A stretch of DNA of 44,580 nucleotides from a virus (IMGVR_UViG_2534682161_000019), one strand, 5' to 3'. Shown: positions 1,326 to 16,257, numbered from the stretch's first letter. Program-made: numbers and translations. The notes: generated by a model from the sequence alone, not told the origin.

Positions 1326-1359
1326 CTAAAAAACTAAGGGGTTACCATTTGGTAACCCC
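1326..1359 (-). terminator. rho-independent terminator-like hairpin downstream of the tRNA-Ser 3-prime fragment
   Basis: Perfect inverted repeat GGGGTTACC-ATTT-GGTAACCCC (1338-1359) followed on the minus strand by a T-run (A-run 1327-1332 on plus). Confidence 0.5.
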
Positions 1360-1369
1360 TTATCTTATT

Positions 1370-1429
1370 TGGCGGAAGCGCAGAGATTCGAACTCTGGAA
1401 CCCTTTCGGGTCGCCGGTTTTCAAGACCG
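1370..1429 (-). other. 60-nt 3-prime fragment of a tRNA-Ser gene (serT-like), putative prophage attachment-site remnant (attL side)
   Basis: Reverse complement reads CGGTCTTGAAAACCGGCGACCCGAAAGGGTTCCAGAGTTCGAATCTCTGCGCTTCCGCCA, which matches the anticodon-stem-to-CCA part of E. coli serT as I remember it; the 5-prime half of the tRNA is absent (sequence beyond 1429 is unrelated); integrase lies 140 bp away. Confidence 0.7.
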
Positions 1430-1569
1430 AAGAAAAATAAAGAAAAATCAGTATAATACGCAAAATAGCCGAAAAGTTAATCAGACTTAACACCAAGAAA
1501 AATCAAGATGTTAGGGAGTTATTCAGAGTTAATATACCAGGTCTTTTGCCAGAAAATTTTCTGGATTGT

Positions 1570-2589
1570 CTACTTACTGACCACAAGCGGCAAATCCAGT
1601 GTTGGCGTGATTTTGGTTTTACGATCGTAAATCAACACCTGATTTTCTGTTTTGTGTCCACTGAAAATTTGTTTGTCGCGACTGCTGCCTTCGTAATCTG
1701 AAATTCCTTTGGCTTTTATGTCATGGAAGTTGCACCCAAACGGAACACCGGCTTTTTGCTCGGCTGCACGTTTAGCCTGATTCCACCAGTTGTTCAGCGT
1801 TTTAGCTATGACCTTCCCGCCTTTGGTTGTGTTGATCACATACTCGCATGTGCCGGAAGATACATTTCGGGCTAACTGGATCGCCGTACGTAATCGTGGA
1901 GACCATTCCTTGATTTGTTTGGTGCCGGTCTTGTTTTGCTCAATGTAAATCCCTTTGTCCATAATATCCTGCCATTTCAGCTCGAGCACATCACCGAGCC
2001 TTGCCGCACAGAGATAGGATATCTCCATTGCAATACGTAACTGTGGAATTGCTTCCGCATATATCGCAGCATACTGTTCATCGGTGATGTAAACAGTACG
2101 GGCTTTAAGCGTGAATTTTCTGACTCCTTTGCATGGATTATTTTTCACATACCCACGCTCATATCCCCATCCGTATACGCGACTCAGACTTGCCAGTTCA
2201 TGGTTTGCCTGGGTCTTGCTCTCAAGCCCCCGCTTATCCATGAAAATTCTTACCTGCTCAATTTTTACATTATCAGCAAGCATTTTCCCGAATACCGCCA
2301 GTAATGCCCTTTGATGTTGCCGATAATCTTTTTGGGTTCGGGGGGCCAGTTCTGTAAATGCAGGGGAGTCCATAAACATGTGCCATAATTTAGCTACGGT
2401 CATTATGTCGTGGAGTTTTGCCTTTTCCAGTTCATAATTTTGCCAGACTTTAGCCACGCTGGTTTCCCGCACTCTTCCTAGCTTTATCGTCCTTGTGCTT
2501 CCTTTGGGCTTCCATACGTAACTGTAACCATTCGATCTAACGCGCGGTGGCAGTACATTATCTTTTTTGTCTTTTCTTGGTCTTCCCAT
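1570..2589 (-). CDS. int: tyrosine site-specific integrase (lambda Int family)
   Basis: 339 aa; C-terminal ...FHDIKAKGISDYEGS...FSGHKTENQVLIYDRK resembles the lambda Int catalytic region (GHKSDTMASQYRDDR); adjacent to tRNA fragment; overlaps the xis-like ORF. Confidence 0.9.
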   Translation of the reverse strand: MGRPRKDKKDNVLPPRVRSNGYSYVWKPKGSTRTIKLGRVRETSVAKVWQNYELEKAKLHDIMTVAKLWHMFMDSPAFTELAPRTQKDYRQHQRALLAVFGKMLADNVKIEQVRIFMDKRGLESKTQANHELASLSRVYGWGYERGYVKNNPCKGVRKFTLKARTVYITDEQYAAIYAEAIPQLRIAMEISYLCAARLGDVLELKWQDIMDKGIYIEQNKTGTKQIKEWSPRLRTAIQLARNVSSGTCEYVINTTKGGKVIAKTLNNWWNQAKRAAEQKAGVPFGCNFHDIKAKGISDYEGSSRDKQIFSGHKTENQVLIYDRKTKITPTLDLPLVVSK

Positions 2590-2809
2590 TATTCAGTGCC
2601 TCAAAATCGGGTTCAGCAGAAACCAGTTCAGATACTTTTGACATTGCTGTTAGTCCACGTGGAATATCACAGCGTAGAACTATCGGCTCGTTTTTAGGCC
2701 CGATTAAAAATGGGATGCCGTGCAGTCTTAACTGGTGTTGCTGTCTTGTGTATCGCTTGTATTTCGTGATCTCTTGAATCTCTGCTGGCGATAGAGTTAA
2801 TTCATACAT
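2558..2809 (-). CDS. xis: putative excisionase / small DNA-binding protein
   Basis: 83-aa basic ORF immediately upstream of and overlapping the int start, the canonical xis position; sequence itself not confidently recognised. Confidence 0.5.
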   Translation of the reverse strand: MYELTLSPAEIQEITKYKRYTRQQHQLRLHGIPFLIGPKNEPIVLRCDIPRGLTAMSKVSELVSAEPDFEALNNGKTKKRQKR

Positions 2810-2875
2810 GTGGTCACATGCCTTACAGCATGACCGCCGCCAATATAATTCGGAGGCGGCGATCAGGGTTGAACA

Positions 2876-5359
2876 TTAAAAATCAGCCTGACTCGGGATC
2901 AGTTTTTGTATTGTAGCTGTAACGTATTTTGCCTGGTGACGGGCGTCATCCAGTGCATTGTGGTGCACGCCTTCGAATGGAATAACGGTTCTGGCATCAA
3001 AGTCGATTGTTTTTCCCAGCTCAACGATTGTGCGTACATCGCGATCGTTGTGGTAGCGCCACGGGCAGGGGATGTCCAGACGTTCGTATGAGGTGCGCAA
3101 AATTGCGTTATCGAAAGTTGCACCATTACCCCATACCTGAACGAATTTTTCATCTGAGTATTCGTTGATGAACTCCCGAAACCGCGAAAGGGCATCCTTC
3201 AGTTTTACCTGGTCTGTTAAAATGGCAGCTCTGGCTTCACTGGACTGCTTCAGCCACCATTCGATGGTTCCACCGTCAGGAACAGCCCCTGTATTCATTG
3301 CGTCAGTCAGACTGATAACGATATAAAATACTGGCCCGATTTCCCCTGTTTGTGGGTCGAAGAAAACCGCACCAATAACCACGATGGGCGCATTGGTGTT
3401 GGTTCCCATTGTTTCAAGGTCGATCATCAGGTGGTACCACACTCTGCTGGTGGATGTGATAACGTGATGACCGTTCACCGCAATTAAGGGATCTGCCGTC
3501 TCGCCAGTTTCATTATCGCTGGCGTGGTCCTGAGCGCTGCCAGCATTCTCCTTGTGTGGATGTTCAGCGCCTTCCATTTCCTCCGGATCATTTTCCTGAA
3601 CTTCAACCTGATTCTCTTCATCGAATGTTTCCTGGTATGTTGCGTCGCCCATCACCGCACCACAATCAGGGCAGTTGCCGCCGCCGGTCTGACCGCAGGC
3701 GGTGCAGACTTTTTCCGCTTCCTGTTGCGCTACTGGCTCAGGTTGTTTCGTTTCTGGCTCGTTTTGTAACGCATTTGGGCTGTTTTGTTCCGCGTTCTGG
3801 TCGTTCTGTTCCGTTTCTTGCTGGTTCTGATTCACAGAATCGCGGGTTTCAATCCCCTTCACCCATTTCGGATCATTCGGGTCGCTAATCCCTGCAACAA
3901 ATTCACTACGTGATACAGCAAGCAACTTATCGGCGTCAGGCTGGCTGATATTGGCTGCCTGCATAATTTTGTTTACTTCGTCAGCGGTAACTTTTACCGG
4001 CTCCGGTTGTGCGATCGTGTCAGATGCACCAGTATTTTGTTGTGAACCTGAGTATGTACCGTTTTTGCGGGCAAAATATTCTTCTTTCGTGATTTCAGTA
4101 GCCCCTGCAGCCAGCGCCTTATTCAGACCAGAAAGTTTGTTTGCACGACCGTATTTTTCGCCATCCTTGTCGGTGAAGAGGAAGTAGAACGGCCCCTCAC
4201 GCTCTACAGATGATTCGACTTCCACTTTGCATTCGGTTTTTTCGTTGTCGTGAATTGCCGTTTCCACTGCGTCAGTTTCTGGTACTGGCGACGAGAGAGT
4301 ATTAGCTGTGCCCTGATTTGTTCCTTCGTCATCTTCAAACACGCCCTTTGTAGTCAGGTATTCAGTGATGTATTTGTTCAGTGCCACGGGATCTTTGTGA
4401 ATGTCGATCGGGCGTTCACGGACAAGGCCAAAAATAGTCTGGCGGCTGTAGCGAAGCGCATCAGGTTGTTTGCGCATTGATGCGGAGATGCGCTTCCAGT
4501 CTTCGCGATCTCTGGCGATAACTTCATTTTTAGCCCAGCGAAGGATGCTGCCGTCAATGTTTCCGGCATCCGCATCACCAGGCCAGAGATAGTAGGCCAG
4601 CTCCCTGTCCAGGGTTTTCCATGTCTGCTTGTATTCGCGATGAATGGCGGCAGTTACAGGAGGGATTTTTTCTGCTGGGTTTTCAGTGTGCTGTCGGTTG
4701 GCTTTGGCGCGGGCAAGATCAACAACAGACGTGTATTTTCCAGTCTCTTTGCGCTCTGCGTCCTGCCGTTTTTTCCAGTTACGTAATTCAACCTGAATTT
4801 CGGGCCATTTGGTACCCGGCTTACATTTGTGTTTAACCCATCCGATAGCGAACAGTTTGCGTTCCGGATACATAGCGTTAATTTCAGGCGTTTTCATCAG
4901 TGCTTCAACGATATGCCCGTCAAAGGTAGCCACGTCTTCTTGCAGTAATTCCTGCGCGTCAATCGCCATATCAACGGTGATGTTTTCACATGTACCGAAC
5001 TTAACCAGGACCGCGTTCTGTACTTCAAGGGACAGCTTGTCAAAATTGACGTTAATAGGATCGGATTCTGGTTCGACCGGAATAAAGGAAGCGGATTCCT
5101 CATCCCAGTGGTTTTCCTGCATATATTCGGTATCCCAGGAGTCGATAGCAGGGCGGGGCATGCCGGGTTTATCTTCGCAGACAAGAAATTTATAAGCGCA
5201 GTCCTGAGCAGCAGGATATTGCTCCAGGAATTGCCAGGTAAATTTGGCACGGGCGCGGCGTTCATCACCGGCTTCAATGGCAGTGGCTACAGCAACTGCG
5301 CCCTCTTCTTTTATTGCCTGTTCGTCCGGAATGGCGGCGCAAATAAAGACTTTACTCAT
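2876..5359 (-). CDS. large early-region protein with C-terminal DnaQ-like (DEDDh) 3-prime-5-prime exonuclease domain (type often annotated exodeoxyribonuclease VIII-like in E. coli prophages)
   Basis: 827 aa; C-terminus carries Exo I (MIDLETMGT), Exo II (WGNGATFDNAIL) and Exo III (HHNALDDARH) motifs; Cys4 ribbon CTACGQTGGGNCPDCG; low-complexity Q/N/E-rich linker. Confidence 0.7.
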   Translation of the reverse strand: MSKVFICAAIPDEQAIKEEGAVAVATAIEAGDERRARAKFTWQFLEQYPAAQDCAYKFLVCEDKPGMPRPAIDSWDTEYMQENHWDEESASFIPVEPESDPINVNFDKLSLEVQNAVLVKFGTCENITVDMAIDAQELLQEDVATFDGHIVEALMKTPEINAMYPERKLFAIGWVKHKCKPGTKWPEIQVELRNWKKRQDAERKETGKYTSVVDLARAKANRQHTENPAEKIPPVTAAIHREYKQTWKTLDRELAYYLWPGDADAGNIDGSILRWAKNEVIARDREDWKRISASMRKQPDALRYSRQTIFGLVRERPIDIHKDPVALNKYITEYLTTKGVFEDDEGTNQGTANTLSSPVPETDAVETAIHDNEKTECKVEVESSVEREGPFYFLFTDKDGEKYGRANKLSGLNKALAAGATEITKEEYFARKNGTYSGSQQNTGASDTIAQPEPVKVTADEVNKIMQAANISQPDADKLLAVSRSEFVAGISDPNDPKWVKGIETRDSVNQNQQETEQNDQNAEQNSPNALQNEPETKQPEPVAQQEAEKVCTACGQTGGGNCPDCGAVMGDATYQETFDEENQVEVQENDPEEMEGAEHPHKENAGSAQDHASDNETGETADPLIAVNGHHVITSTSRVWYHLMIDLETMGTNTNAPIVVIGAVFFDPQTGEIGPVFYIVISLTDAMNTGAVPDGGTIEWWLKQSSEARAAILTDQVKLKDALSRFREFINEYSDEKFVQVWGNGATFDNAILRTSYERLDIPCPWRYHNDRDVRTIVELGKTIDFDARTVIPFEGVHHNALDDARHQAKYVTATIQKLIPSQADF

Positions 5360-5452
5360 TTTGTTTTAACCTCATTACAGATTTAAGGGTGAACAAATCC
5401 CTGCCATTGCTGGCATATAAAAATGAAACCGGATATTAATTACGGTGCTGTT

Positions 5453-5644
5453 TTAAAGTCCTGCCGGTATTTCGTTATTATTAGTGTGAGTAGTTTTATC
5501 TACCGGATAACAGTTACCGGGAATTTTTTGTTCTGCTGCTGCAGCCATGCATTCTTTCATTGAACCGTATAAGCCAGTCACCAGCTCAAGAGATTCGCCG
5601 GAAACAAGATAAACTGTCAGAACGAGTGCAAATGTTGTATTCAT
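5453..5644 (-). CDS. hypothetical small protein (hydrophobic N-terminus)
   Basis: 63-aa ORF in the leftward early operon, stop overlapping the next gene start (ATGA). Confidence 0.4.
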   Translation of the reverse strand: MNTTFALVLTVYLVSGESLELVTGLYGSMKECMAAAAEQKIPGNCYPVDKTTHTNNNEIPAGL

Positions 5645-5829
5645 TGTTTATATCCTTTTTGCAGCAGGTCCAGACGAGCCAGCATTGAAGGAATGCATAC
5701 TTCATTTAACAGGTCCTGCTCGAGTTTTCTCTGCTTAATGGCGTCTTCAATAAATGTTTTGTCTCCAGTGATAACGCCAATTTCGAAACGAAGTTCAGAC
5801 GTGATGGCATTACATGATAACTTTTCCAT
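5641..5829 (-). CDS. hypothetical small early protein (RacC-like position)
   Basis: ORF track gives 5641-5934; the internal ATG at 5829 (MEKLSCNAITSELRFEIG...) is preceded by a GAGGA RBS whereas the 5934 start has none, so the shorter start is preferred. Confidence 0.4.
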   Translation of the reverse strand: MEKLSCNAITSELRFEIGVITGDKTFIEDAIKQRKLEQDLLNEVCIPSMLARLDLLQKGYKQ

Positions 5830-6406
5830 TATCGCGTCCTCAACAATGAATTTTGTGATGCGGTGCCTGGTGCCTCCAGGTGACGTTAACCAGTTAACAA
5901 TTAACGCCGGATACAGAGAATCCACCCATAACACTGTTTTTGGTTTTAACTGTTCCGCGTGCGCTGAGCCGCATTCACCGCATCACAAAATTCACTTTTA
6001 AAAAAGGGCGGCAGAGCAGTCACGGAGTAAAACTGATACCGCCAAATGTCACCAGAATATTGATAACAGAGGGCGTTGTAGCGGGGTTGTCACTTAAGCG
6101 TATGGTCAACCTGACAACCCGGTGTCCTCAACGGGGAAAGGCGTCCCTCCCACCCCCGCCATACTTACCGCCGCGCCATTTCGCGGGTCGCCACAACCGG
6201 AAGCGCACGGTCGAATTAAATTTAACGACACCGTGCAGTGAGACGAACTTCGCCGTGCGCTTTCGTGTTGTGTGCCTGCTTTTAACCACGTCAGGCGAGG
6301 TGGTTTCCGTCATTCCCCAACGACAGGAAATCTGTATAATCTGGGTATCCCCAACGATCCAAGGAAATCATATGACAGAGCAAAGAGCACAAGCAGGTGA
6401 TGGTGT

Positions 6407-6613
6407 ATGGACCGGGATGATATTCTTGACAGAATTTTTTATGGCTATTTTCTTGAGCAACTGTTTTCTGTAGCGACTGGTCGTCTCGATAAACTTCTCT
6501 CAGTAGTGAGTATTATCCTCGGTTCATCTGTCATTGGCGGATTCATTCCGGAAATTTCTGGCGTTTTTATTGTTGTGATCGCAACCGTCCAAACGATTTA
6601 TGGATTCGGATAA
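6407..6613 (+). CDS. hypothetical small membrane protein (rightward ORF inside the leftward early region)
   Basis: 68 aa with a long hydrophobic stretch LLSVVSIILGSSVIGGFIPEISGVFIVVIATV; opposite orientation to flanking genes, as sieB is in Rac. Confidence 0.3.
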   Translation: MDRDDILDRIFYGYFLEQLFSVATGRLDKLLSVVSIILGSSVIGGFIPEISGVFIVVIATVQTIYGFG

Positions 6614-6628
6614 AAGTCAGGTAATACC

Positions 6629-6853
6629 ATGAGAAAATCCGCAGAATATTTGCAGCTTTTTGATGATGCAGAAAAATATTCTGATTCGGAATTGAAAATT
6701 CAGTTAAAAACTCTGGAAAAAACAGATAATCATATTTGGTCATCACTTAAAGATATTGCGATCTTAAAAACACAGATCAAAATAGGCGTCTCCATCGAAC
6801 AACAAGAGAAGTTGCCCACAAAATCCAAATTGATGCGATTTCTTTGTGGTTAG
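6629..6853 (+). CDS. hypothetical protein, same frame as 6407-6613 and separated from it by one stop codon
   Basis: 74-aa ORF; ATG 15 nt after the preceding TAA. Confidence 0.3.
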   Translation: MRKSAEYLQLFDDAEKYSDSELKIQLKTLEKTDNHIWSSLKDIAILKTQIKIGVSIEQQEKLPTKSKLMRFLCG

Positions 6854-6942
6854 GAATATCCAGATTGTTAAAGAGCATGCCGGAGGTTTATCCGTGTCCG
6901 GCGCACGCACTTCATCTGCGGAGAACTACTTGAGCTCATTGG

Positions 6943-7158
6943 TCAGTAGTTTTCAATCACTCGCGAAACGTTTAATGCCGCGCTTTTTGCCAGAGTGGTA
7001 ATATCCTGCTCCGCTGACACCAGTTCTTTAGAGAGGCGCTCTTTGTAGTCAGCGGCCTGCTTCAGGTCATTAATGGCGCGTATCTTTCCGCACATCCATT
7101 CGTAAATTTCATCCTCGGTATAGTCTGGTGCGATGATGACGGGTTCTCGTTTCTGCAT
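6943..7158 (-). CDS. hypothetical early protein
   Basis: 71-aa ORF in the leftward operon. Confidence 0.4.
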   Translation of the reverse strand: MQKREPVIIAPDYTEDEIYEWMCGKIRAINDLKQAADYKERLSKELVSAEQDITTLAKSAALNVSRVIENY

Positions 7159-7187
7159 ACTGATTCCTCGAGGTGCCGCTTCGCTTA

Positions 7188-7316
7188 TCAGTCGTTAGAT
7201 TTTGCCGAACTGGAAAGCGCCTGTTTAAACTCACTGAAGCTGAGAGCTTCTTCGCCTTCGGCAAGGCCTTCGAAGTATTCTTCGTAAGCCTTTTCCATGA
7301 TTGCGTCGAAATCCAT
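7188..7316 (-). CDS. hypothetical small acidic protein (42 aa)
   Basis: Not in the ORF track (under 60 aa); ATG at 7316 preceded by AGGTGAG RBS; MDFDAIMEKAYEEYFEGLAEGEEALSFSEFKQALSSSAKSND; fits tightly between flanking leftward genes. Confidence 0.35.
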   Translation of the reverse strand: MDFDAIMEKAYEEYFEGLAEGEEALSFSEFKQALSSSAKSND

Positions 7317-7317
7317 A

Positions 7318-7554
7318 TCACTCACCTGAATTTCTTTCCAGCCAGCGACGCGCGCCAGCTTCGGTTTTAAACGTTTTGCTTCTGGTATACGTCATCGCGG
7401 TGAACGTGCCGTCCTGGTTGGGAAACACGCCGTACACCAGAGATTCGTTGTTGCCAAGATCGATAGTATCCATGCTGACCTCATTTCCCCTTAACGCCGG
7501 GGTAGCGGAACAAAAACCTGCTGCATAGTTATTAAAGTTGAACCCTGCCGTCAT
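7318..7554 (-). CDS. hypothetical protein, first gene of the leftward early operon
   Basis: 78-aa ORF; an alternative start at 7473 (MDTIDLG...) has a GAGG RBS; not Arg-rich, so not an N-like antiterminator. Confidence 0.4.
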   Translation of the reverse strand: MTAGFNFNNYAAGFCSATPALRGNEVSMDTIDLGNNESLVYGVFPNQDGTFTAMTYTRSKTFKTEAGARRWLERNSGE

Positions 7555-7649
7555 GTTCTTACGCCTCGGGCTGGCTACTTAACCCCTGACCACTGCCGGG
7601 TAACTCTAGGTATTGCCCTGCGTTCTGTGGGGCGGGGTGGGTTGGCATG

Positions 7650-7700
7650 TATATAATGTACTTTATGTTCAGTGTTGTAAAGTACTTTGAGTACATTTTA
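7650..7700. promoter_or_regulatory. leftward early promoter/operator region (OL-like) with ATGTACT operator motifs
   Basis: ATGTACT at 7656-7662 (+) and 7690-7696 (-); 13-mer ATGTACTCAAAGT on the minus strand (7684-7696) is identical to one at 8240-8252. Confidence 0.45.
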
Positions 7701-7771
7701 TGTGTAAAAAAATGAGATGGGAAAAAGTGAAGCACAAACCCGGAGGGGGACGCTACCGGATTTATGCTGGT

Positions 7772-8191
7772 TTAAGAGGCTTTTTGTTTTTTCTTTCGTG
7801 CTAACTCTTCGTAAATTGCATTGTACTTTTGTTTTTTCTCCTCAAGAGTTTTTAAAAGTTCATCTGTCTCACTGTCAGGGAGCTCGTCCAGAAGATCAAT
7901 GATGATTTTTTGTCTTGGATTTAACTCCTGATAGAAACGTACCTGTCCACTTTCTTCTGTATCCTCTCCCAAAAGATAGGTTGGTGTTGTTCCAATGAGT
8001 GTTGCTAATTCCCTTAATTTCTCTCGGCGAGGAATTGTTTCGCCATTAAACCATTTGCTAACCGCTTTTGGTGTTAATTTCATTCGACGGGCAATTTCTG
8101 CCTGCCTTCCATGTTGTTCATAACCAGCGTTTTCACAGGCTAGCGCAAGCCTACTGGCGAACTCTTTACGCGCTTTATCTTCATGAACCAT
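7772..8191 (-). CDS. prophage repressor, HTH XRE family (RacR/DicA-like, no S24 peptidase domain)
   Basis: 139 aa; N-terminal HTH (...QAEIARRMKLTPKAVSKWFNGETIP...); acidic C-terminus; divergent from a Cro-like gene. Confidence 0.7.
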   Translation of the reverse strand: MVHEDKARKEFASRLALACENAGYEQHGRQAEIARRMKLTPKAVSKWFNGETIPRREKLRELATLIGTTPTYLLGEDTEESGQVRFYQELNPRQKIIIDLLDELPDSETDELLKTLEEKKQKYNAIYEELARKKKQKAS

Positions 8192-8199
8192 AAGTTCAA

Positions 8200-8260
8200 T
8201 GATATTCGCTCTTGAATGTACTGTCAGTTCTGTTATAGCATGTACTCAAAGTTCACATTG
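8200..8260. promoter_or_regulatory. divergent promoter/operator region between repressor and cro-like gene (OR-like)
   Basis: ATGTACT motifs at 8216-8222 and 8240-8246; shares 13-mer ATGTACTCAAAGT with the OL-like region. Confidence 0.5.
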
Positions 8261-8270
8261 TGAGGGTGAT

Positions 8271-8525
8271 ATGAACCAGAAAACACTTGAAGATGTAATC
8301 AAAACTGTTCGCGTTTCTGTTGTGGCCGACGTTTGTGGTGTCAGCCAAAGAGCAATCTACAAATGGATGGATAACGGAAAATTGCCTCGCACTGAATATA
8401 CCGGCGAAACAAATTATGCTGAAAAAATCGCTCATGCATCAAACGGATTATTTTCTGCCGATGCAATTTTAACTATTGGCAGAAATAAAACTACTACGAA
8501 AAAGCTGTTGGGAGTTGATTCATGA
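8271..8525 (+). CDS. Cro-like / YdaS-family small HTH regulator
   Basis: 84 aa from the ATG at 8271 (RBS GAGGGTGA); HTH-like VADVCGVSQRAIYKWMDNGKLP; divergent from the repressor. Confidence 0.6.
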   Translation: MNQKTLEDVIKTVRVSVVADVCGVSQRAIYKWMDNGKLPRTEYTGETNYAEKIAHASNGLFSADAILTIGRNKTTTKKLLGVDS

Positions 8526-8947
8526 AAATCAAGCATGAGCACATCCGCATGGCGATGAATGCCTGGTCGCATCCGGACGGCGAAAAAGTTCCGGCAGCTG
8601 AAATAACCCGGGCTTATTTTGAACTGGGTATGACGTTTCCGGAACTGTACGACGATTCACACCCAGAAGCCCTGGCTCGCAATACTCAGAAGATTTTCCG
8701 CTGGGTGGAGAAAGACACCCCTGATGCGGTTAAAAAAATTCAGGCGTTGTTACCAGCGATCGAAAAAGCAATGCCACCTCTGCTGGTGGCCCGAATGCGC
8801 AGCCACAGTTCAACCTGGTTTCGGGAGCTGGTGGAGACGCGGGAACGACTGGTGAGAGACGCTGATGATTTTGTCGCAGTGGCGATCGCTGGTTTCAATC
8901 AGATGAATCGTGGTGGTCCGGCGGGAAATGCCGTGGTGATGCACTAA
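8522..8947 (+). CDS. YdaT-like / CII-like early regulatory protein
   Basis: 141 aa directly after the cro-like gene (start overlaps its stop); same position and size as ydaT of Rac; assignment from recollection. Confidence 0.45.
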   Translation: MKIKHEHIRMAMNAWSHPDGEKVPAAEITRAYFELGMTFPELYDDSHPEALARNTQKIFRWVEKDTPDAVKKIQALLPAIEKAMPPLLVARMRSHSSTWFRELVETRERLVRDADDFVAVAIAGFNQMNRGGPAGNAVVMH

Positions 8948-8970
8948 AAGCACGGTGTTCGGAGTTTTTT

Positions 8971-9918
8971 ATGAGCAGCAAGCTTCATGGTCTTGTCTGG
9001 GAAGGGTGTGCCTTCACCGGCATGATCTTATCCAGGGTGGCAGTAATGGCTCGCCTTGCAGATTACAGCAATGACGAAGGTGTGTCATGGCCTGCAGTGG
9101 AGACCATTCGTCGTCAGATTGGGGCAAAGAGTGAATCAACGGTTAAAGCGGCGATAGCGGAACTGGAAAAGAACGGCTGGCTGACGAAGGAGGAACGTAA
9201 GGTCGGTGGGCGTAATGAAAGCAATATCTACCGTCTTAATGTGGAAAAACTCGAAGCAGCAGCAGCGGCGGCGCGTGAGGCATATAAACCGAAAAGAAAA
9301 ATTAACCCGGTAAAAAATGACCCGTCAAATATTGACCCCTCAACGGTTGACCCCTCAAATTTTGATGGATCAACCGTTGATAAAAAACATTCGGTTAGGG
9401 GGACGATGGTTGGCCCCGATCCGTCAGTATTAAAACCTGATCCGCCAGATAAAAGATCTTCTTGTCCGGACGCTTCGCAACCGGACCCGCAGATGGCTGA
9501 ACAGGATTTTTTAACCCGACACCCTGACGCGGTTGTGTTCAGTGCGAAAAAACGCCAGTGGGGCAGCCAGGAAGATTTAGCGTGTGCGCAGTGGATCTGG
9601 GGGCGAATCGTGAGTCTTTACGAGCAGGCTGCCAGCGATGATGGCGAAATCATGCGACCGAAAGAACCAAACTGGACTGCATGGGCCAATGATGTGCGCA
9701 CAATGCGGATGCTGGATGGCAGAACTCACAGACAAATTTGCGAAATGTTTGGTCGGGTACAGCGGGATCCATTCTGGGTAAAAAACATCATGAGTCCGGC
9801 AAAACTCCGGGAAAAATGGGATGAGCTGGTTATTCGTCTGGGGCGTTCGCCTGTACAGCGTTGCGTGAATCACATTTCTGAACCGGATACCGAAATTCCG
9901 CCGGGGTTCAGGGGGTAA
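8971..9918 (+). CDS. replication initiator protein (O-like; N-terminal winged HTH)
   Basis: 315 aa; N-terminal HTH (...VSWPAVETIRRQIGAKSESTVKAAIAELEKNGWL...); internal DPSNIDPSTVDPSNFDGSTVD tract encoded by iteron-like DNA repeats. Confidence 0.6.
   Translation: MSSKLHGLVWEGCAFTGMILSRVAVMARLADYSNDEGVSWPAVETIRRQIGAKSESTVKAAIAELEKNGWLTKEERKVGGRNESNIYRLNVEKLEAAAAAAREAYKPKRKINPVKNDPSNIDPSTVDPSNFDGSTVDKKHSVRGTMVGPDPSVLKPDPPDKRSSCPDASQPDPQMAEQDFLTRHPDAVVFSAKKRQWGSQEDLACAQWIWGRIVSLYEQAASDDGEIMRPKEPNWTAWANDVRTMRMLDGRTHRQICEMFGRVQRDPFWVKNIMSPAKLREKWDELVIRLGRSPVQRCVNHISEPDTEIPPGFRG
9313..9381. repeat. iteron-like direct/inverted repeats inside the replication gene (putative origin)
   Basis: Repeated TGACCC(C)TCAA units (aaaaatgacccgtcaaat / attgacccctcaacgg / ttgacccctcaaat / tttgatggatcaaccgttga) followed by an A-run. 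Confidence 0.45.
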
Positions 9919-9960
9919 GTGTTGATTTGAGGTCATGAAGTTATTTTCTCAGGAGAGTTT

Positions 9961-10362
9961 ATGGGGGCTATTTATACCGAAGAACAGCGGGAAAGATTAC
10001 AGCGTCACATCGTTGACCTTGTACGTAAAAACGGGCGTATGAAAATGCCACAACTGGCATCGGCAACATATGCTTCACATGATTCCATTCGCCGGTACCT
10101 GAAGATGCTGGTGAGCCAGGGCGAAGTGTATGTTGTCAGCGGAAAAGGGGTATTCCTTTCAGAGAGAGTTTACCGTGAATGGCTGGCAAGTTCGGCAAAA
10201 AAATCAAGGGTTATCCGCAAACCAGCACAAAAACAGGGTAAGGCCGGAGTACAACCCTACGACCGGCACCAGAACGTAATTTGCCGGGAATGTCGTAACA
10301 GCGAATCAATGCAGCGGGTACTGGCTTTTTACCGGGGTGGATTTCAGGAGCTCGTATCGTGA
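9961..10362 (+). CDS. hypothetical protein
   Basis: 133-aa ORF; ATG preceded by AGGAGAG. Confidence 0.45.
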   Translation: MGAIYTEEQRERLQRHIVDLVRKNGRMKMPQLASATYASHDSIRRYLKMLVSQGEVYVVSGKGVFLSERVYREWLASSAKKSRVIRKPAQKQGKAGVQPYDRHQNVICRECRNSESMQRVLAFYRGGFQELVS

Positions 10363-10667
10363 AAAAGTGGGTGCGTGCCGAGATACTGATTCTACGGCAG
10401 TGTGCGGGAACAATGACGGTGGAATGTATCGGGATGCTTATTGGTCGTAGTGAGGCTGCGGTCAGAACGAAAGCGCGGGAACTGGGTATTAGTATGATGT
10501 TACGGGGTGATTATCACCAGTCAGCAAAATATCCGCAGAGTGATATTGAGCTGGCGCGACAGCTGCATCAGCTTGGCGTGTCCAGGAGAGAAATCGCCAG
10601 AAAATTTGGAATGCCGCTGCGCACAGTGAATAACTACGTTTATTTCGACAGGAGGGTGTCTGCGTGA
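10359..10667 (+). CDS. hypothetical HTH-containing protein
   Basis: 102 aa with two HTH-like stretches (GRSEAAVRTKARELGIS and GVSRREIARKFGMPLRTV); start overlaps previous stop. Confidence 0.45.
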   Translation: MKKWVRAEILILRQCAGTMTVECIGMLIGRSEAAVRTKARELGISMMLRGDYHQSAKYPQSDIELARQLHQLGVSRREIARKFGMPLRTVNNYVYFDRRVSA

Positions 10668-10897
10668 AAATCCTGTATCAGGATTACGGCCCGGTGGGAC
10701 AGGTGGTTATCAGCAGTACTGTAATGGAGTTCCGGAAGCATAACCGTGTGGTGGATGCAGTACTGTTAGCCTGTCCGGGGATATCGGCGAGCCGTGCAGG
10801 TGTGTTTTTTATGAAGACGAAGTTATATGGCAGTACAGCGTGGATAAAGAAGGCGTACCGGGTAGCGTTACAGGAGGTAAACAGTGAGCGAAATTAA
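10664..10897 (+). CDS. hypothetical protein
   Basis: 77-aa ORF translationally coupled to its neighbours. Confidence 0.35.
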   Translation: MKILYQDYGPVGQVVISSTVMEFRKHNRVVDAVLLACPGISASRAGVFFMKTKLYGSTAWIKKAYRVALQEVNSERN

Positions 10898-11345
10898 CTG
10901 TCAGGCACTGCGAGAGGCGGCAGAGAAAGCAACTAAAGGAAGCTACATCGTAGGGCATACGTCTGTTAACCAGCATGGCAATTTAACAGGAGTTTTTGTT
11001 TGTCAAAAATGGAAAGGAGAACCCGGTGGCGTGATTGCAGAATGTCATGTTAACTGCCTGGTTGAAACAGATGCTCAGGCTTACGCAAACGCTGAATTTA
11101 TTGCTGCCTTTAATCCAAAGGTTGCGCTGGCGATACTGGATAAGCTGGAAGCTAAAGACAAGCGCATTGCAGAACTGGAGGCGAGGGAAATCCAGTTACC
11201 TGCTGGCTTCGACCTTCGATATGGACACCCGATAAATGCTGATGAGCGACATGTGATGATACCTAAAGAAAATGGCAACTGGATTCATCGGACTGACTTA
11301 GAGCACTCACTACGTGTTGCAGGGATTCGTATTAAAGGAGACTAA
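10884..11345 (+). CDS. Ead/Ea22-like protein
   Basis: 153 aa; resembles the Ead/Ea22-like family common in E. coli prophages (recollection only); coiled-coil-like middle. Confidence 0.4.
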   Translation: MSEINCQALREAAEKATKGSYIVGHTSVNQHGNLTGVFVCQKWKGEPGGVIAECHVNCLVETDAQAYANAEFIAAFNPKVALAILDKLEAKDKRIAELEAREIQLPAGFDLRYGHPINADERHVMIPKENGNWIHRTDLEHSLRVAGIRIKGD

Positions 11346-11346
11346 C

Positions 11347-11703
11347 GTGGAAATAAAACCAGAAGATGAGTTAAGTAATATTGTTTTATTTCCGGTAAAA
11401 GAGGATGACCCACGTAATCAGGTTAATTTTCTTTATGAGCCATCGGAAAGACCATATTGTCATCACGACTCTGTCCGGGTTGACGAAAAAGAGCGTCAGG
11501 TCCGCTGTAAAATCTGCGGTGCAGTTGTGGAGCCATTTGACTGGATGCTCTCTGTGGCGAAAAGAGAAACCAGACTGGCAGATGATGTAAGGATCTTGCG
11601 CCAGGAGGAACGGGAAAGGCGGAGAAATATAGAAAAGCTAATTCAGATTGAGCGTAACGTGAAAGCGCGGATACGCAGGGCGACAAAATCCAGAACAGAA
11701 TAA
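11347..11703 (+). CDS. hypothetical zinc-ribbon protein
   Basis: GTG start 7 nt after a perfect AAGGAG RBS (track gives an upstream overlapping ATG at 11314); CHHD...CKICG Cys/His cluster; Arg-rich C-terminus. Confidence 0.45.
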   Translation: MEIKPEDELSNIVLFPVKEDDPRNQVNFLYEPSERPYCHHDSVRVDEKERQVRCKICGAVVEPFDWMLSVAKRETRLADDVRILRQEERERRRNIEKLIQIERNVKARIRRATKSRTE

Positions 11704-11751
11704 TTAAATTTAGCACTGTTAAAAATTTAATCCTTAACCGGAGGTATATCA

Positions 11752-11946
11752 ATGTCAAACGCACAGAAAGTTATTAACGCTGAAAAATATAACGAGTGGG
11801 TGAAAAAGTTCTCAGAGCAGATTTTTAAAATTACTGGCGACGAGAATGCGGCAAAAAATGAATTAGAGCCGTGGACACCTGAAGGTGTCGCCCCAAATTA
11901 TTGCTGGTGGATGTTGATCCAGTTGATGCTGCAAATGAAGCGATGA
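11752..11946 (+). CDS. hypothetical protein
   Basis: 64-aa ORF; GGAGG RBS upstream. Confidence 0.4.
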   Translation: MSNAQKVINAEKYNEWVKKFSEQIFKITGDENAAKNELEPWTPEGVAPNYCWWMLIQLMLQMKR

Positions 11947-11998
11947 GTTATCACAACGATTAATGTCAGGAGGCCGCCCGAAAGGGCGGTAATGAAAA

Positions 11999-12689
11999 GT
12001 GACTGAATTAACCAAAGAGCAATTAATCGAAGAAGCCAAATTAAAAATAGCGATTGCGAAATGCCACCCCAATTCAGGGATGGCACGGGTAGAGGGCGAG
12101 TTATTCAAAATTGCACTGGCATCGCTGGTAGCAGAACCGCTGGTGCCCGTCATGTATAAAGGAATGAAACTGTTAACAAAAGAGGGGCTTGAGCTTATTC
12201 GTGACGGTATTGCGGAGGCTACGGGACTGGAAGCAATGTGTATGGCTGATGCTTTGCTGTCTGGGGGGGGGGGCAGTGCCGTCAGTGCCGAAAGAAATGT
12301 ATTGGCAGGATGCACCAGTTGAAAGTAGCAGCAAAGCAGCTGCATACGCTACAGGCTGGAAAGCCTGCCGCGAAGCCATGCTTCAGTCCGGAAACTTTCG
12401 GGATAATAAGAATTCGTCAACCAACAATTTTCGGGAAATCCCGGAAACGTCAACCAGCTCTCAGGGAACTCCGGCTGGCTGGATAAGCTGTAGTGATGCA
12501 GTTCCTGCTGAATATTGCGATGTGATTCTGCGCGATGATCTCGGGAATGTATTCCCCGGTTCATGGGATAAGGTTTTTTGCCCCACTCGTGGCGGGAATA
12601 AGATGGCTTTTGTGGACAAAGACGGCGTCGAAGTAGAGAGCTCAACCCACTGGATGCCGCTACCAGAATCGCCGAAGGTGGTGAAGTGA
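11999..12689 (+). CDS. DUF551-like protein interrupted by a frameshift at a G11 homopolymer (possible pseudogene, phase-variable gene or sequencing artefact)
   Basis: ORF 11999-12322 and ORF 12189-12689 are in different frames and join across GGGGGGGGGGG at 12263-12273; removing one G gives a continuous ~229-aa protein ending ...WMPLPESPKVVK. Confidence 0.45.
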
Positions 12690-12762
12690 TGGAAAATGAA
12701 TTCGAAAATGCTATCGCCACGGTGCAGCCAAAATCAATAGTTGAGTAGACTTACTCTGAGGC

Positions 12763-12791
12763 TTGACTACGAGGTTACCATTAGGTGTAAT
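12763..12791 (+). promoter_or_regulatory. sigma70-like promoter upstream of the AT-rich island
   Basis: TTGACT (12763-12768), 17-nt spacer, TGTAAT (12786-12791). Confidence 0.4.
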
Positions 12792-12863
12792 TTAGAGTAA
12801 GTTGGTAGCCTCAGTTGTCGAAGAGGCATAATGGTGATTGTTAGTTGATGCAATAATTAAGGA

Positions 12864-13355
12864 ATGTTAATGCCTACTAATGCTGAACAACCAGTATCAA
12901 TTAGTAAACCGAAGACCGTTACACTTCGTGCTTTTGAAATAAAAAACACTGCACTTTCGAAAAGTTCTAGCGAAGCTAAGGCCGATTTGATAGCAAGGCT
13001 TAGTCAAGTAAAACAGGCAAAAGATAGATGCATGTTGTTAAATCCAGAAGATCCTAAGCAGGAAAGAGATGTTCTTTCGTATTTTAAAGAATCTCCTGTT
13101 ACTGATTCAGTATTTTGCACTATGTTAAGGATTACATCTGACAAAGAAATCCAACACATAACAGATTCTCTTTTTGAGAAAGAGGTCTTTTCTCTGGATG
13201 ATATAGAAACATCTCATTTAGATGTGTCAGCAATATGTAAAGGCCATTACTATTTTTGCATGAGTGATGATTTTTTAGTTACAAATCTCCCATTAAATAA
13301 AACGATTGTGCGTTTACAAACGTATCTGAGTTGGTTTACAAATAATGAGCTTTAA
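12864..13355 (+). CDS. hypothetical protein, first gene of the AT-rich island
   Basis: 163-aa ORF; AAGGA RBS favours the second ATG at 12870; no recognised motif; AT-rich codon usage unlike the surrounding prophage. Confidence 0.5.
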   Translation: MLMPTNAEQPVSISKPKTVTLRAFEIKNTALSKSSSEAKADLIARLSQVKQAKDRCMLLNPEDPKQERDVLSYFKESPVTDSVFCTMLRITSDKEIQHITDSLFEKEVFSLDDIETSHLDVSAICKGHYYFCMSDDFLVTNLPLNKTIVRLQTYLSWFTNNEL

Positions 13356-13370
13356 GAATTCACCCCACTA

Positions 13371-13883
13371 GTGTCAGCAAAAGGGAAAACGAAACTTAGT
13401 GATTTAAAAGCCATAATCGTTAAAGATCCAGAACCGTTAGTACCGACTGCTATGTGTGATGAGTCTGGTGTTAGAAGTAAAAAGGGAGAAATTACGGTTA
13501 GCGAAGGTCATAAATCTATCAAGTTAACACAAAAAGTTCTGGATATTATCAGGAGTTCGATGTCAGACTCTGAACAACTTAATGATATGATGCTGAGTCA
13601 AATGATTTCTGCTGAATTGTTAATAAAATTTAAAAAGCCACGCAGAATGACAGATGATGAATATAGTAGAGCTTTAGGGGCTTATTTGAAACCCGTTAGC
13701 GATCTTGATAATGTATCATTTAAGCGAAAAGATAACAAAACAGAAGTGAAAGGCAAGGATTTGCTGTTAACAAAGTCTGTAAGTATTGAAACGACACAGT
13801 CAGGTAAATTAGTTGAGCATCATTTGCTACAAGAGATGAGCAAGTTTTTGCTAGAGTTAAGCAATGAAAAAAATAGCGGTTAG
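13371..13883 (+). CDS. hypothetical protein, second gene of the AT-rich island (same frame as the first, separated by one TAA)
   Basis: 170-aa ORF with a GTG start and no clear RBS; in-frame continuation of 12864-13355 across the stop at 13353-13355. Confidence 0.45.
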   Translation: MSAKGKTKLSDLKAIIVKDPEPLVPTAMCDESGVRSKKGEITVSEGHKSIKLTQKVLDIIRSSMSDSEQLNDMMLSQMISAELLIKFKKPRRMTDDEYSRALGAYLKPVSDLDNVSFKRKDNKTEVKGKDLLLTKSVSIETTQSGKLVEHHLLQEMSKFLLELSNEKNSG

Positions 13884-14325
13884 CGTATTATCAATATTGC
13901 TGCTCACATTGTTGGCTAGTTCAGTCTGGGATGTTCGTCCGGACGGTTTTTTTGCGTCGACAGTTTTTACAATTTCTGGAATAATGTTCTCAATTGGATT
14001 AGGGCTAATTGTGAATTTTAGCACATCCGGTGTAAGGAACCGTGGATACATTCTGCGTATTAGACGTAATGTAATGAGGGTGAGGAATTCATTTCTATTA
14101 TATTTTGGTTTGTCGACTTTTTCTTACATAGCAAATCAATATCTTACTGCTTTTGAGTTTTCTTTAACCTTTGGTGATGGTATCAAAACATGTTTTAGCG
14201 CATCCATATTCTTTTGCTTGCTTATAATTTATTCCTCTATATATTTTGTTGTTAATTTTATAGAGTTGCAAAAACTCAATAATGATATTTTTGATAAAGT
14301 CAATGCGGAAATAACTAACAAATGA
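13864..14325 (+). CDS. hypothetical integral membrane protein (about 4 TM helices), third gene of the AT-rich island
   Basis: 153 aa; hydrophobic segments SVLSILLLTLLASSVW, VFTISGIMFSIGLGLIVNF, FLLYFGLSTFSYIANQYL, FSASIFFCLLIIYSSIYFVVNFI; overlaps the upstream ORF by 20 nt. Confidence 0.55.
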   Translation: MKKIAVSVLSILLLTLLASSVWDVRPDGFFASTVFTISGIMFSIGLGLIVNFSTSGVRNRGYILRIRRNVMRVRNSFLLYFGLSTFSYIANQYLTAFEFSLTFGDGIKTCFSASIFFCLLIIYSSIYFVVNFIELQKLNNDIFDKVNAEITNK

Positions 14326-14523
14326 AATGGCTTTTGTGTGCATGTTAAATAAAGAATACATGGCATCATTTAATGATGTCATGTGTAACGAGCGAAAAGC
14401 CTTTTGAACGGTTTTCATAAGTTATATTGAAAGATAAAATTGCTGCGGGTGCTTGAGGCTATCTGCCTCAGGCATGAACACCAACGGCAGATAGATAAAA
14501 GCCCCACCCGACTATAAATCGAA

Positions 14524-15194: not shown

Positions 15195-15195
15195 C

Positions 15196-16245: not shown

Positions 16246-16257
16246 AAGAGGTTACTG

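Follow-up and report, generated by a model that had tools for sequence, protein, structure and literature searches.

A YdfE-type member of the RecE scaffold family carrying a predicted DEDDh 3'-5' exonuclease in the early-left operon of an enterobacterial prophage

The 827-aa protein encoded on the minus strand at positions 2876..5359 of the window, the whole 44,580-nucleotide stretch of viral DNA that was analysed (IMGVR_UViG_2534682161_000019), is by alignment genuinely paralogous to RecE along about 75% of its sequence, the nuclease alone having been exchanged. The PD-(D/E)XK (PF12684) domain of RecE, which works 5'-3', is replaced by a 3'-5' domain of the DEDDh type. We propose that the gene is an intact, YdfE-type member of a mosaic enterobacterial prophage family whose proteins share the non-catalytic RecE scaffold, and that it encodes a 3'-5' DNA exonuclease which acts early in the lytic programme and needs no annealase; this reading, taken as a whole, is given an even chance of being correct. 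The ORF begins with an ATG preceded by GAGG 10 nt to its 5' side; its coordinates and length are those given by an earlier sequence-only reading of the same DNA. The family itself is very common and already catalogued: PHROG 2082 ('exonuclease') matches the protein end to end with 1703 bits, and RefSeq genes 99.8-99.9% identical to the ORF carry the name '3'-5' exonuclease'. No paper joining RecE, DEDDh and prophage was found in a literature search.

The DEDDh domain, of the Rv2179c/DexA family, spans aa 641-827 (2876..3439, minus strand) and is the sole catalytic domain of the protein. Pfam PF16473 (Rv2179c-like 3'-5' exoribonuclease domain) matches aa 643-815 with E 6.6e-68 and 228.3 bits against a cut-off of 27, covering positions 2-175 of the 177 in the profile, and no other significant match was obtained with the local Pfam library. 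The DnaQ-like Exo motifs are confined to the C-terminal part, in agreement with the sequence-only reading. PHROG 255, the family of T4 DexA, matches the domain with E 3.6e-82, and PDB 8kel, a 227-aa 'Exodeoxyribonuclease' whose residues 3-124 are 100% identical to the T4 gene, with E 6.7e-10. A Foldseek search of the PDB with the full-length AF2 model, in which this domain is poorly modelled (pLDDT 50-79), returned nothing. Alignment with DexA assigns the catalytic pentad to D647 and E649 (Exo I), D750 (Exo II) and H800 and D805 (Exo III, of the Hx4D form), equivalent to DexA D7, E9, D119, H186 and D191. These residues are kept across the homologues, with the exception of the poorly aligned N-terminal stretch of one of them (P0122). 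A metal-dependent 3'-5' exonuclease activity is accordingly the predicted one for domains of this type, and DNA rather than RNA is the substrate that we infer.

DexA is a 3'-5' exonuclease cleaving DNA (PMC12153337). The domain shares Pfam and PHROG families as well as all five catalytic residues with DexA and with EcD, its homologue in E. coli. DexA is however a stand-alone protein of 227 aa, whereas the present domain forms the C-terminus of 827 aa, and the identity between the two is about 30% over the aligned half. EcD is probably a stand-alone domain as well, since the primers used for it start at the Exo I motif. Some temperate enterobacterial phages also encode DEDDh exonucleases that stand alone (PY54 gp51, YDC107_1 and vB_EcoM-720R4). 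These share 56-63% identity with aa 644-827 along the whole domain, but measure 190-199 aa, lack the scaffold and occupy other genomic positions.

The main rival to our proposal, though unlikely, builds on this relationship and holds that the protein is a superinfection-exclusion nuclease of the DexA/EcD 'HREX' type, which would degrade the modified (5hmC-type) DNA of incoming T-even-like phages and protect the lysogen. EcD digests T4 DNA and spares unmodified DNA, its plasmid-borne gene protects against T4, and bacterial DexA homologues are commonest in Escherichia, with 38% (Kang et al. 2025, PMC12153337). The grouping of the domain with DexA in one PHROG points in the same direction, as does the distance from Exo I to the equivalent of DexA D90, which is 8 residues shorter than in DexA, the published numbering of EcD (PMC12153337) implying likewise. 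Of 5426 complete E. coli genomes, 3504 (about 65%) contain the family, at up to 9 places per genome, as would be expected of a beneficial prophage gene, and the gene adjoins int, a frequent site of accessory genes. Several points speak against this rival. The equivalent of D90, the tetramer-forming Asp of DexA, is D722, an Asp conserved in all homologues examined, while EcD has Ala; S87 of DexA corresponds to K719. W152 and D169 of DexA, reported to be needed on T4 DNA, are aligned by MAFFT with H770 and F787 (Y/C/W and F/I in relatives), in a gapped region made ambiguous by W768 and D786/D788, which lie within two residues; a clear conservation of the positions linked to activity on 5hmC DNA is not seen. 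According to its primers EcD begins with MIDTET and ends with TIPETYD, which no retrieved sequence matches, and a 23-nt primer-derived sequence of EcD (HAK9828821.1) was absent from the viral and genome contig collections and from all fetched loci. The gene moreover lies in the repressor-controlled early-left string rather than in a cassette obviously expressed in the lysogen, and a role in defence leaves the conserved 640-aa RecE scaffold unexplained.

RNA is a possible substrate, which weighs against our proposal, because Rv2179c, from which the family takes its name, is an exoribonuclease. On this ground the protein could be a 3'-5' exoribonuclease of the Rv2179c-like kind, or an enzyme acting on small single-stranded nucleic acids, engaged in the turnover of host or phage RNA or in counter-defence against molecules that have free 3' ends, such as retron msDNA or reverse-transcriptase cDNA. 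The description of PF16473 defines the family on an exoribonuclease, a weak similarity to oligoribonuclease is detected (NCBIfam E 0.011; PDB 6n6a, E 1), some RefSeq copies are named '3'-5' exoribonuclease domain-containing protein', and the small RNA DicF is made from the same operon. The closest relative by sequence that has been both solved and characterised is nevertheless a DNA exonuclease, DexA, the scaffold is common to a DNA recombination enzyme, and a literature search found no evidence of defence or counter-defence for the family. This explanation is regarded as distinctly improbable, and the assignment to DNA is retained in what follows.

In the remaining part of the protein, aa 1-640, small folded domains alternate with disordered linkers of acidic composition; the net charge of this part is -45. 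Domain boundaries were taken from the full-length AF2 model, and all coordinates below refer to the minus strand. The N-terminal unit comprises N1a (aa 1-100, 5060..5359), a small alpha/beta domain of net charge -12, and N1b (aa 101-225, 4685..5059), which is all-helical; both are modelled with pLDDT 87-98 in the two AF2 runs. A YdfE-type N1 profile aligned by hhalign to a RecE-type N profile matches aa 13-227 with RecE 10-256 (probability 96%, E 4.3e-9), by which N1a and N1b are distantly homologous to the N-terminal domain of RecE (the PF06630 region); the relationship is called distant because PF06630 itself gives no direct match in the protein. The N-terminal part already has entries in Pfam, the newer families PF27430 and PF27432. 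N2 (aa 245-345, 4325..4627; pLDDT 89-98) is helical, common to RecE (about RecE 294-353) and found in YdfE-type and RecE-type representatives alike. It is followed by an acidic, T/S/E-rich linker that is predicted to be disordered (aa 346-385, 4205..4324; pLDDT 33-37) and by N3 (aa 386-445, 4025..4204), a small domain of a beta-hairpin and a helix, which occurs in YdfE-type representatives and is modelled with pLDDT 91-96 over aa 390-440.

The M block (aa 455-570, 3650..3997) is the best-conserved block in common with RecE of the Rac prophage, and the recE gene of Rac-SA53 is 87% identical to the ORF in nucleotides over query nt 1456-1828. It contains two helices, the motif SR(S/G)EFV(A/D)GISDPNDPKW, a Q/N/E-rich tract (aa 500-548; aa 500-545 hold 20% Q, 15% E and 15% N) and a Cys4 zinc ribbon of the form CTAC...CPDC (aa 552-566; C552, C555, C563 and C566). 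The four cysteines are kept in 11 of the 12 representatives of 50%-identity clusters that cover the region, the twelfth lacking the second pair in the alignment; a chance pattern of cysteines was rejected on this conservation. The scaffold ends with an acidic disordered linker (aa 571-640, 3440..3649) of net charge about -15 and pLDDT 30-38. Ribbon and low-complexity tract had both been located by the sequence-only reading; a zinc ribbon and low-complexity or acidic linkers are features of RecE. The same reading had called the N-terminal region unknown, which fails for its relationships: the profile match given above and the homology to K-12 YdfE described below connect it to known proteins.

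The direct comparison with K-12 RecE carries the argument for an exchange of the nuclease. BLASTP aligns aa 279-626 with RecE 294-591 (E 5e-64), with hardly any differences in the zinc ribbon and acidic linker, and the alignment stops at query 626 and RecE 591, where the PD-(D/E)XK nuclease of RecE starts. Because the similarity ends where the RecE nuclease begins, the catalytic domain has been swapped, and the scaffold (aa 1-640) is homologous to RecE 1-591. The two proteins share the N-terminal domain, N2, the M block with GEFVxGISDPNDPKW, the Cys4 ribbon and the acidic linker. Each scaffold has a strong negative charge (net -45 here and -50 in RecE), and both genes occupy the same early-left operon slot upstream of xis-int. 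They differ in the polarity and fold of the nuclease, in the absence of RecT downstream of the 827-aa gene and in the N1 region, which is here of the YdfE type. Among 50%-identity cluster representatives each N-terminal type is paired with either nuclease or with neither, and one protein (P0128) consists of RecE 1-440 (90-99% identical) followed by M and a DEDDh domain. The sole lead on the N-terminal part of RecE is a boost to linear-linear recombination, used in direct cloning. No function is assigned to this region (PMC11611040).

Many homologues in phage records are labelled 'exodeoxyribonuclease VIII', as the sequence-only reading had stated. It set the label against true RecE, which has a PD-(D/E)XK nuclease and is paired with RecT; the label is not a plain error, given the alignment with RecE, and would be better described as misleading on activity yet resting on real homology. 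A true functional equivalent of RecE (exonuclease VIII) with an annealase encoded elsewhere could also be read from that label, from the homology of the scaffold and from the match to NCBIfam PRK09709 (E 6e-86). That match reaches 289 bits against an equivalog cut-off of 1269 and covers aa 448-627 only, and neither PF12684 nor another PD-(D/E)XK domain is detected in the protein, whereas K-12 RecE, used as a control with the same library, gives PF12684 at E 4e-28. A prophage with 99.3% identity across window positions 1336-21159, whose PGAP annotation supplies the gene names used here, has no gene annotated as an annealase, and none emerged from PHROG scans of 20 further ORFs of the window; tblastn against the window with RecT of two types and RecE nucleases of two types gave chance matches only (best E 0.6). 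On these searches a hidden annealase or a PD-(D/E)XK remnant was rejected, and functional equivalence to RecE, refuted at the sequence level, is hardly credible. The sequence-only reading had likewise seen no adjacent RecT/Bet-like gene, and its exclusion of a RecE/RecT-type module is upheld: with a DEDDh instead of a PD-(D/E)XK domain and no RecT/Bet partner, the protein cannot work in 5'-3' resection coupled to annealing. The same searches produced neither of the two findings that this reading had named as refuting it, a PD-(D/E)XK domain of the RecE kind and an overlooked annealase.

The association of annealase and nuclease extends to related phages. RecT is present in 0 of 80 DEDDh-type phage loci, and a K-12-type RecT in 73 of 80 loci of the PD-(D/E)XK type; a divergent RecT-family gene lies directly downstream in 4 more of the latter (checked in one, L088) and the remaining 3 end at a contig edge, so that all 77 complete loci have a RecT-family gene, although these figures count lineages rather than independent events as the 160 loci are close relatives.

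The position of the gene is that of ydfE in a dicBF-type operon. Directly downstream, likewise on the minus strand, are an excisionase-like gene (DUF4224, 2558..2809) and, at the end of the early-left string, a tyrosine integrase (1570..2589), the xis and int that the sequence-only reading had placed to the left. Directly upstream, in the same minus-strand orientation, are a ydfD-like gene (DUF1482, 5453..5644) and dicB (5641..5829), followed by the DicF small RNA (6006..6057, minus strand; Rfam RF00039, 77 bits against a gathering score of 48), which marks the operon type. dicB and ydfD are upstream in 72 of 80 related phage loci, and the order ydfA-ydfB-ydfC-dicF-dicB-ydfD-ydfE-int is identical in the window and in the Qin prophage of K-12. 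YdfE (b1577) is 84% identical to aa 1-256, and the gene is the intact form of the Qin pseudogene: in K-12, an IS2E insertion ends ydfE at about codon 256, so that N2, N3, M and the exonuclease are missing, whereas the copy in the window is complete. No functional study of ydfE was found in a literature search.

Purifying selection acts on every folded domain. Against 8 homologues the dN/dS of the whole gene is 0.20-0.26, with 0.12-0.14 for N1, 0.19-0.24 for N2 and 0.05-0.30 for N3 (0.04-0.30 over the folded scaffold domains) and 0.14-0.20 for the DEDDh domain in the comparisons with large dS; the linker at aa 346-385 is near neutral (0.7-1.9). A pseudogene status of the window copy was rejected on these values. 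That the gene is in decay and without function, left over from a recombination module whose nuclease and partner were lost, as the IS2 interruption in K-12 and the numerous truncated copies in databases might suggest, is very improbable in view of the same dN/dS values, the full-length ORF, the intact pentad and the retention of the gene in the plaque-forming phages Tritos, Evi and HannyBb.

The preferred reading, an annealase-independent DNA exonuclease on a RecE scaffold, can be summarized as the following conditional scheme, in which scaffold delivery and end processing are both inferred. The protein would be expressed from the early-left string, between dicB-ydfD and xis-int, and after induction or infection the scaffold would deliver the nuclease to a target or partner also used by the scaffold of RecE. 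A protein partner seems likelier than direct binding to DNA because the scaffold is so acidic. The DEDDh domain would then strip nucleotides from free 3' ends of DNA by metal-dependent catalysis. As this polarity would destroy the 3' tails on which a RecT-type annealase loads, an annealase partner would not have been kept. The exonuclease might cut back 3' overhangs or uncover complementary 5' tails, like host ExoIII in annealase-independent joining of linear DNA; E. coli cells require XthA (exonuclease III), but neither recA nor recET, to join linear DNA in vivo (PMC6379578).

Strand exchange would be left to the host. The window is enriched in Chi: the top strand, to which the late genes belong, has 10 sites and the bottom strand has 2, and the octamer is the commonest of its 168 permutations. 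No anti-RecBCD gene (Gam, GamL, Abc2 or MuGam) is named in the PGAP annotation of the near-identical early region or in the PHROG scans, which covered 20 further ORFs, several small early ones (ydfA/B/C-like or below 70 aa) excepted. The lack of an annealase and of a recognisable anti-RecBCD gene, together with many correctly oriented Chi sites, suggests dependence on RecBCD/RecA. Zheng et al. 2025 (Genome Res, PMC12315714) give Tritos as prototype of one class of lambdoid recombination modules, rich in Chi and listed in their Table 1 with a nuclease only, without SAP, SSB or anti-RecBCD. The Tritos copy of the gene, 83.7% identical in nucleotides, has the same place in the order dicF-dicB-ydfD-exo-xis-int, and the window resembles the class in its nuclease, its lack of a SAP and its Chi content; the type of the Tritos nuclease and a RecE scaffold with a swapped nuclease are not mentioned in the main text of PMC12315714 as searched. 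The same source states that DnaQ-like 3'-5' nucleases 'usually inhibit homologous recombination', for which reason one would not by default expect the protein to promote recombination, and that DnaQ-type genes adjoining int are probably outside the Rec module.

A broader interpretation, tentative and quite unlikely as it stands, is that the RecE/YdfE scaffold is a nuclease-indifferent targeting platform whose C-terminal 'warhead' is exchanged by recombination at the M block. Three versions of the scaffold are seen, with a PD-(D/E)XK 5'-3' nuclease (always with RecT), with a DEDDh 3'-5' nuclease (never with RecT) and with C-termini devoid of a recognisable nuclease. The DEDDh form would then be either a second, annealase-independent pathway for DNA ends, by ExoIII-like cohesive 5' tails or by conditioning of ends for RecBCD-Chi, or a scaffold-targeted anti-phage nuclease.

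The same scaffold is naturally joined to a nuclease of the opposite polarity, and the annealase tracks the nuclease and not the scaffold. This amounts to a natural experiment by which the work of the scaffold may be separated from that of the nuclease, for a 590-residue part of RecE that has been without an assigned function for decades. About two thirds of complete E. coli genomes have the gene concerned, many of them more than once; it also occurs in Stx-phage-associated prophages, and it is the sole recombination-type gene in a Chi-rich lambdoid class thought to depend on the RecBCD of its host.

A single open reading frame of 827 codons occupies 2876-5359 (-) in the ORF list of the window, with a GAGG motif 10 nt upstream of its ATG. 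The sole significant domain found with the local Pfam library is PF16473 (Rv2179c-like 3'-5' exoribonuclease) at aa 643-815 (E 6.6e-68), and the catalytic residues of this DEDDh domain are D647/E649 (Exo I), D750 (Exo II) and H800/D805 (Exo III), close to the C-terminus as the sequence-only reading had it. The Cys4 ribbon and the Q/N/E-rich tract noticed in that reading are also real: the former consists of C552, C555, C563 and C566, all four conserved in 11 of the 12 cluster representatives (50% identity) spanning the region, and the latter covers aa 500-545. The best solved sequence relative of the domain is PDB 8KEL, a 227-aa 'Exodeoxyribonuclease' which tblastn against the T4 genome identified as T4 DexA; the T4 dexA gene is tagged PHROG 255, a family also matching the window protein (E 3.6e-82). 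DEDDh exonucleases consisting of such a domain alone (190-199 aa; 56-63% identity to the C-terminal domain of the window protein) are encoded by YDC107_1, PY54 (gp51) and vB_EcoM-720R4 (phage contig loci L168, 3962-4561; L169, 2992-3564; L170, 3992-4564). In vB_EcoM-720R4 the gene, labeled exodeoxyribonuclease VIII, comes after yfdP, yfdQ and a gene for an HD-hydrolase.

The N-terminal 600 or so residues, previously left unplaced, proved to be RecE-like. Residues 279-626 align with residues 294-591 of K-12 RecE (from NC_000913.3) with a BLASTP E-value of 5e-64, the last 170 residues or so being near-identical and including RecE's own CNACGQTGGDNCPDCG ribbon and acidic linker. The alignment ends at RecE residue 591, about the start of the nuclease domain (residues 564-866; PMC11611040), and the NCBIfam RecE model covers only this same stretch of the window protein (289 bits vs a cut-off of 1269). 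PF06630, a family built on RecE residues 1-178, has no match in the first 230 aa; comparison of YdfE-type and RecE-type N-terminal profiles using hhalign nevertheless aligned aa 13-227 with RecE 10-256 (probability 96%, E 4e-9). From both matches, the entire non-catalytic part is therefore RecE-like and the nuclease alone differs, with a predicted polarity opposite to that of RecE. The earlier interpretation was thus half right: it correctly rejected a RecET module, but the protein is strongly a RecE relative. It is firmly supported that the protein joins a RecE-type scaffold (aa 1-640) to a DEDDh exonuclease whose active site is intact.

AlphaFold2 modeling of aa 1-350 with 39 homologues (mean pLDDT 88) predicts that the first 100 residues form an alpha/beta domain, followed by a helical domain (aa 101-225), disorder at aa 225-245 and another helical domain (aa 245-345). 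To these, the full-length model adds a confident small beta-rich domain (aa 390-440, pLDDT 91-96), two helices of moderate confidence (aa 459-483) and predicted disorder at aa 346-385, 503-549 and 568-656. The net charge is -45 for the window scaffold and -50 for that of RecE, and such strong acidity would argue against a general DNA-binding role.

The scaffold family is mosaic. An exhaustive HMMER search with aa 1-640 against 1.84 billion cluster representatives returned only 245 proteins (E <= 0.001). Classification by BLAST showed that the long members carry one of two alternative N-terminal types, YdfE-type or RecE-type, that the N2 domain and the M block (aa 455-570, including the ribbon) are shared between them, and that the C-terminus is DEDDh, PD-(D/E)XK or devoid of Pfam match. 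One representative, P0128, joins RecE residues 1-440 (90-99% identity) to the M block and then a DEDDh domain. Nucleotide identity to recE is high in the M block alone (87%, Rac-SA53), and this block is likely to be the crossover point for domain exchanges.

The association with the RecT annealase was examined in two sets of 80 IMG/VR phage loci, from about 1100 matching loci overall (597 and 497 confirmed stretches in two scans). The first set, with the closest M blocks, is entirely DEDDh (64 YdfE-type and 16 RecE-type N-termini) and RecT is found in 0/80; 72 of the genes lie behind dicB-ydfD, with int next where the contig extends far enough. The second, with RecE-type N-termini identical to K-12, is entirely PD-(D/E)XK and RecT is present in all 77 complete loci, the remaining 3 being cut by the contig end; 73 have a K-12-type RecT and 4 a divergent PD-(D/E)XK domain. 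The RecT partner tracks the nuclease type and the pattern is absolute across the two sets, the 160 loci being close relatives whose counts are not independent events. The divergent loci (L088 at 7001-11157, also L156, L162 and L163) encode a 1030-aa RecE variant with a K-12-type N-terminus. Its nuclease domain in L088, the one locus checked of the four, is 27.5% identical to that of K-12 RecE, and a 350-aa PF03837 RecT-family gene lies directly downstream; this is a third combination of nuclease and partner on the same scaffold. Eight further scaffold proteins of 700-790 aa (P0126, P0130, P0133, P0134, P0148, P0181, P0192 and P0215) have C-terminal portions of 250-350 residues that resemble neither nuclease and hit no Pfam family. 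These may correspond to the 'RecE-2' proteins, which according to Zheng et al. (2025, PMC12315714) lack a nuclease domain.

The gene order in the window (cI-like, ydfA, ydfB, ydfC-like, dicF, dicB, ydfD-like, 827-aa ORF, xis, int) is that of K-12 Qin. DicF was located at 6006-6057 (-) using Rfam (77 bits), with dicB (5641-5829) and the ydfD-like gene (5453-5644) downstream of it; as in Qin, the early-left region constitutes a complete dicBF-type operon. The leftward neighbors, correctly recognized as xis and int at the outset, are a DUF4224 excisionase-like gene and a tyrosine integrase gene. The Qin counterpart, ydfE, is a pseudogene cut by IS2E whose remnant is 84% identical to the window protein over aa 1-256. 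Because of this identity and the Qin-like gene order, the ORF is the intact form of YdfE. On the opposite strand between dicF and the ydfC-like gene, an ORF at 6407-6853 (+) has an in-frame stop at 6611-6613 in the window; its counterpart in the OkiPb01695 prophage is intact (148 aa), in a position resembling that of sieB in Rac.

Megablast detected full-length copies in 3504 of 5426 complete E. coli genomes, in up to nine places per genome, and the gene also occurs in phages Evi, mEp460_ev081, Tritos, HannyBb, PhiR42_1 and in PPompW prophages. Homologues are labeled from '3'-5' exonuclease' to 'exodeoxyribonuclease VIII', the latter name, as anticipated, in part of the records; precomputed Pfam tags include PF27430 and PF27432. 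Judged from sequence, the protein is a widespread, already catalogued RecE-family variant with a nuclease of predicted opposite polarity and no partner.

The reported lack of a RecT/Bet-like gene holds across the window. No gene name of the RecT, Erf, Bet or Sak type appears in the annotation of the OkiPb01695 prophage (99.3% identical over 1336-21159). A further 20 window ORFs scanned against PHROG matched only replication, lysis, packaging, HNH and unknown families, and tblastn queries with two types each of RecT and of RecE nuclease gave chance hits only against the window. The 99.3% identity is confined to 1336-21159, and the early and late halves are mosaic: the late region (21160-44580) encodes a lambda-like siphovirus head and tail in the window, and sheath, tube and baseplate in OkiPb01695. 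In size and order the late genes of the window resemble those of lambda, with endolysin, Rz-like spanin, small terminase subunit, tail completion protein and tail terminator confirmed by PHROG. The left flank (1-1335) is not host core; it carries another prophage's Ail/Lom-family gene and J-tail remnant, beside a tRNA-Ser site, and has an STnc100 sRNA match (273-465). Positions 1-1600 are 100% identical to E. coli N96, whereas the OkiPb01695 prophage abuts yccA. Two neighboring ORFs of 163 and 170 aa, neither with a PHROG match, lie in a low-GC island (0.35) at 12864-13883 (+) and are represented in OkiPb01695 by one 338-aa hypothetical CDS; a moron or defence gene may have been split in the window. 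A sok antitoxin RNA at 14447-14596 (+) adjoins a hok/gef-type gene, annotated by PGAP as frameshifted in OkiPb01695, and phage-borne tRNA-Thr(TGT) and tRNA-Gly(TCC) genes lie at 19261-19414 (+), downstream of the Q antiterminator region.

Chi (GCTGGTGG) occurs ten times on the late-gene strand (3446, 8782, 8827, 11903, 15237, 18474, 21030, 21140, 23610 and 43447, +) and twice on the other (15827 and 15879, -), about 1 being expected, and is the commonest of the 168 permutations of its octamer. Zheng et al. (PMC12315714) describe a group of lambdoid phages that lack recombination modules and have abundant Chi in the correct orientation, and propose that these use host RecBCD; they also note that DnaQ-type nucleases sporadically adjoin int. 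The window pattern fits the Chi-rich, anti-RecBCD-less phages of that study. The class is already catalogued there, since Table 1 includes a 'Tritos' class (nuclease +, SAP -, SSB -, anti-RecBCD -; Chi 21/6 to 7/2) and Tritos carries the same gene (83.7% nucleotide identity, same dicF-dicB-ydfD-exo-xis-int position). No description of the nuclease of this class as a RecE scaffold whose catalytic domain has been exchanged was found in the main text.

The DEDDh domain would act on DNA 3' ends, DexA, its closest characterised relative, being a DNA exonuclease (PMC12153337), and the scaffold would supply targeting, as presumably for RecE. A 3'-5' polarity would remove the 3' tails needed by a RecT-type annealase, which would be why none is kept. 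Trimming of 3' overhangs or exposure of complementary 5' tails is a plausible form of end processing in a Chi-rich phage lacking an annealase. In vivo joining of linear DNA in E. coli requires xthA (exonuclease III), recA and recET being dispensable (PMC6379578); counting against this role, DnaQ-like 3'-5' nucleases 'usually inhibit homologous recombination' (PMC12315714).

The main alternative, an anti-phage nuclease of the DexA/EcD type (HREX), appears unlikely. Digestion of T4 DNA and protection from T4 are reported for EcD, a DexA homologue of E. coli, and bacterial DexA homologues are commonest in Escherichia (Kang et al. 2025, PMC12153337), but the repressed-operon position and the large conserved scaffold fit defence less well. 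By its primers, EcD has MIDTET, at the Exo I motif, as its first residues and TIPETYD as its last. DexA W152 and D169 align with H770 and F787 of the window protein, in an ambiguous part of the alignment, and the D90-equivalent, Ala in EcD, stays Asp; on these residues, HREX membership is unproven. An RNA-directed or counter-defence role is more improbable still.

A decayed remnant is ruled out by pairwise dN/dS of the gene against eight homologues, which shows selection on every folded part: 0.04-0.30 for the folded scaffold domains and, at large dS, 0.14-0.20 for the DEDDh domain, the linker (aa 346-385) reaching about 0.7-1.9. Within one pair, dS varies sharply by domain (DEDDh: 0.008 against locus L010, about 1.0 against others), which indicates intragenic mosaicism. 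That the gene belongs to a repressor-controlled early-left string and is selected as a whole is firmly supported. The 827-aa protein is useful mainly as a handle on the unexplained scaffold of RecE and on the way in which Chi-rich lambdoid phages lacking an annealase deal with DNA ends.
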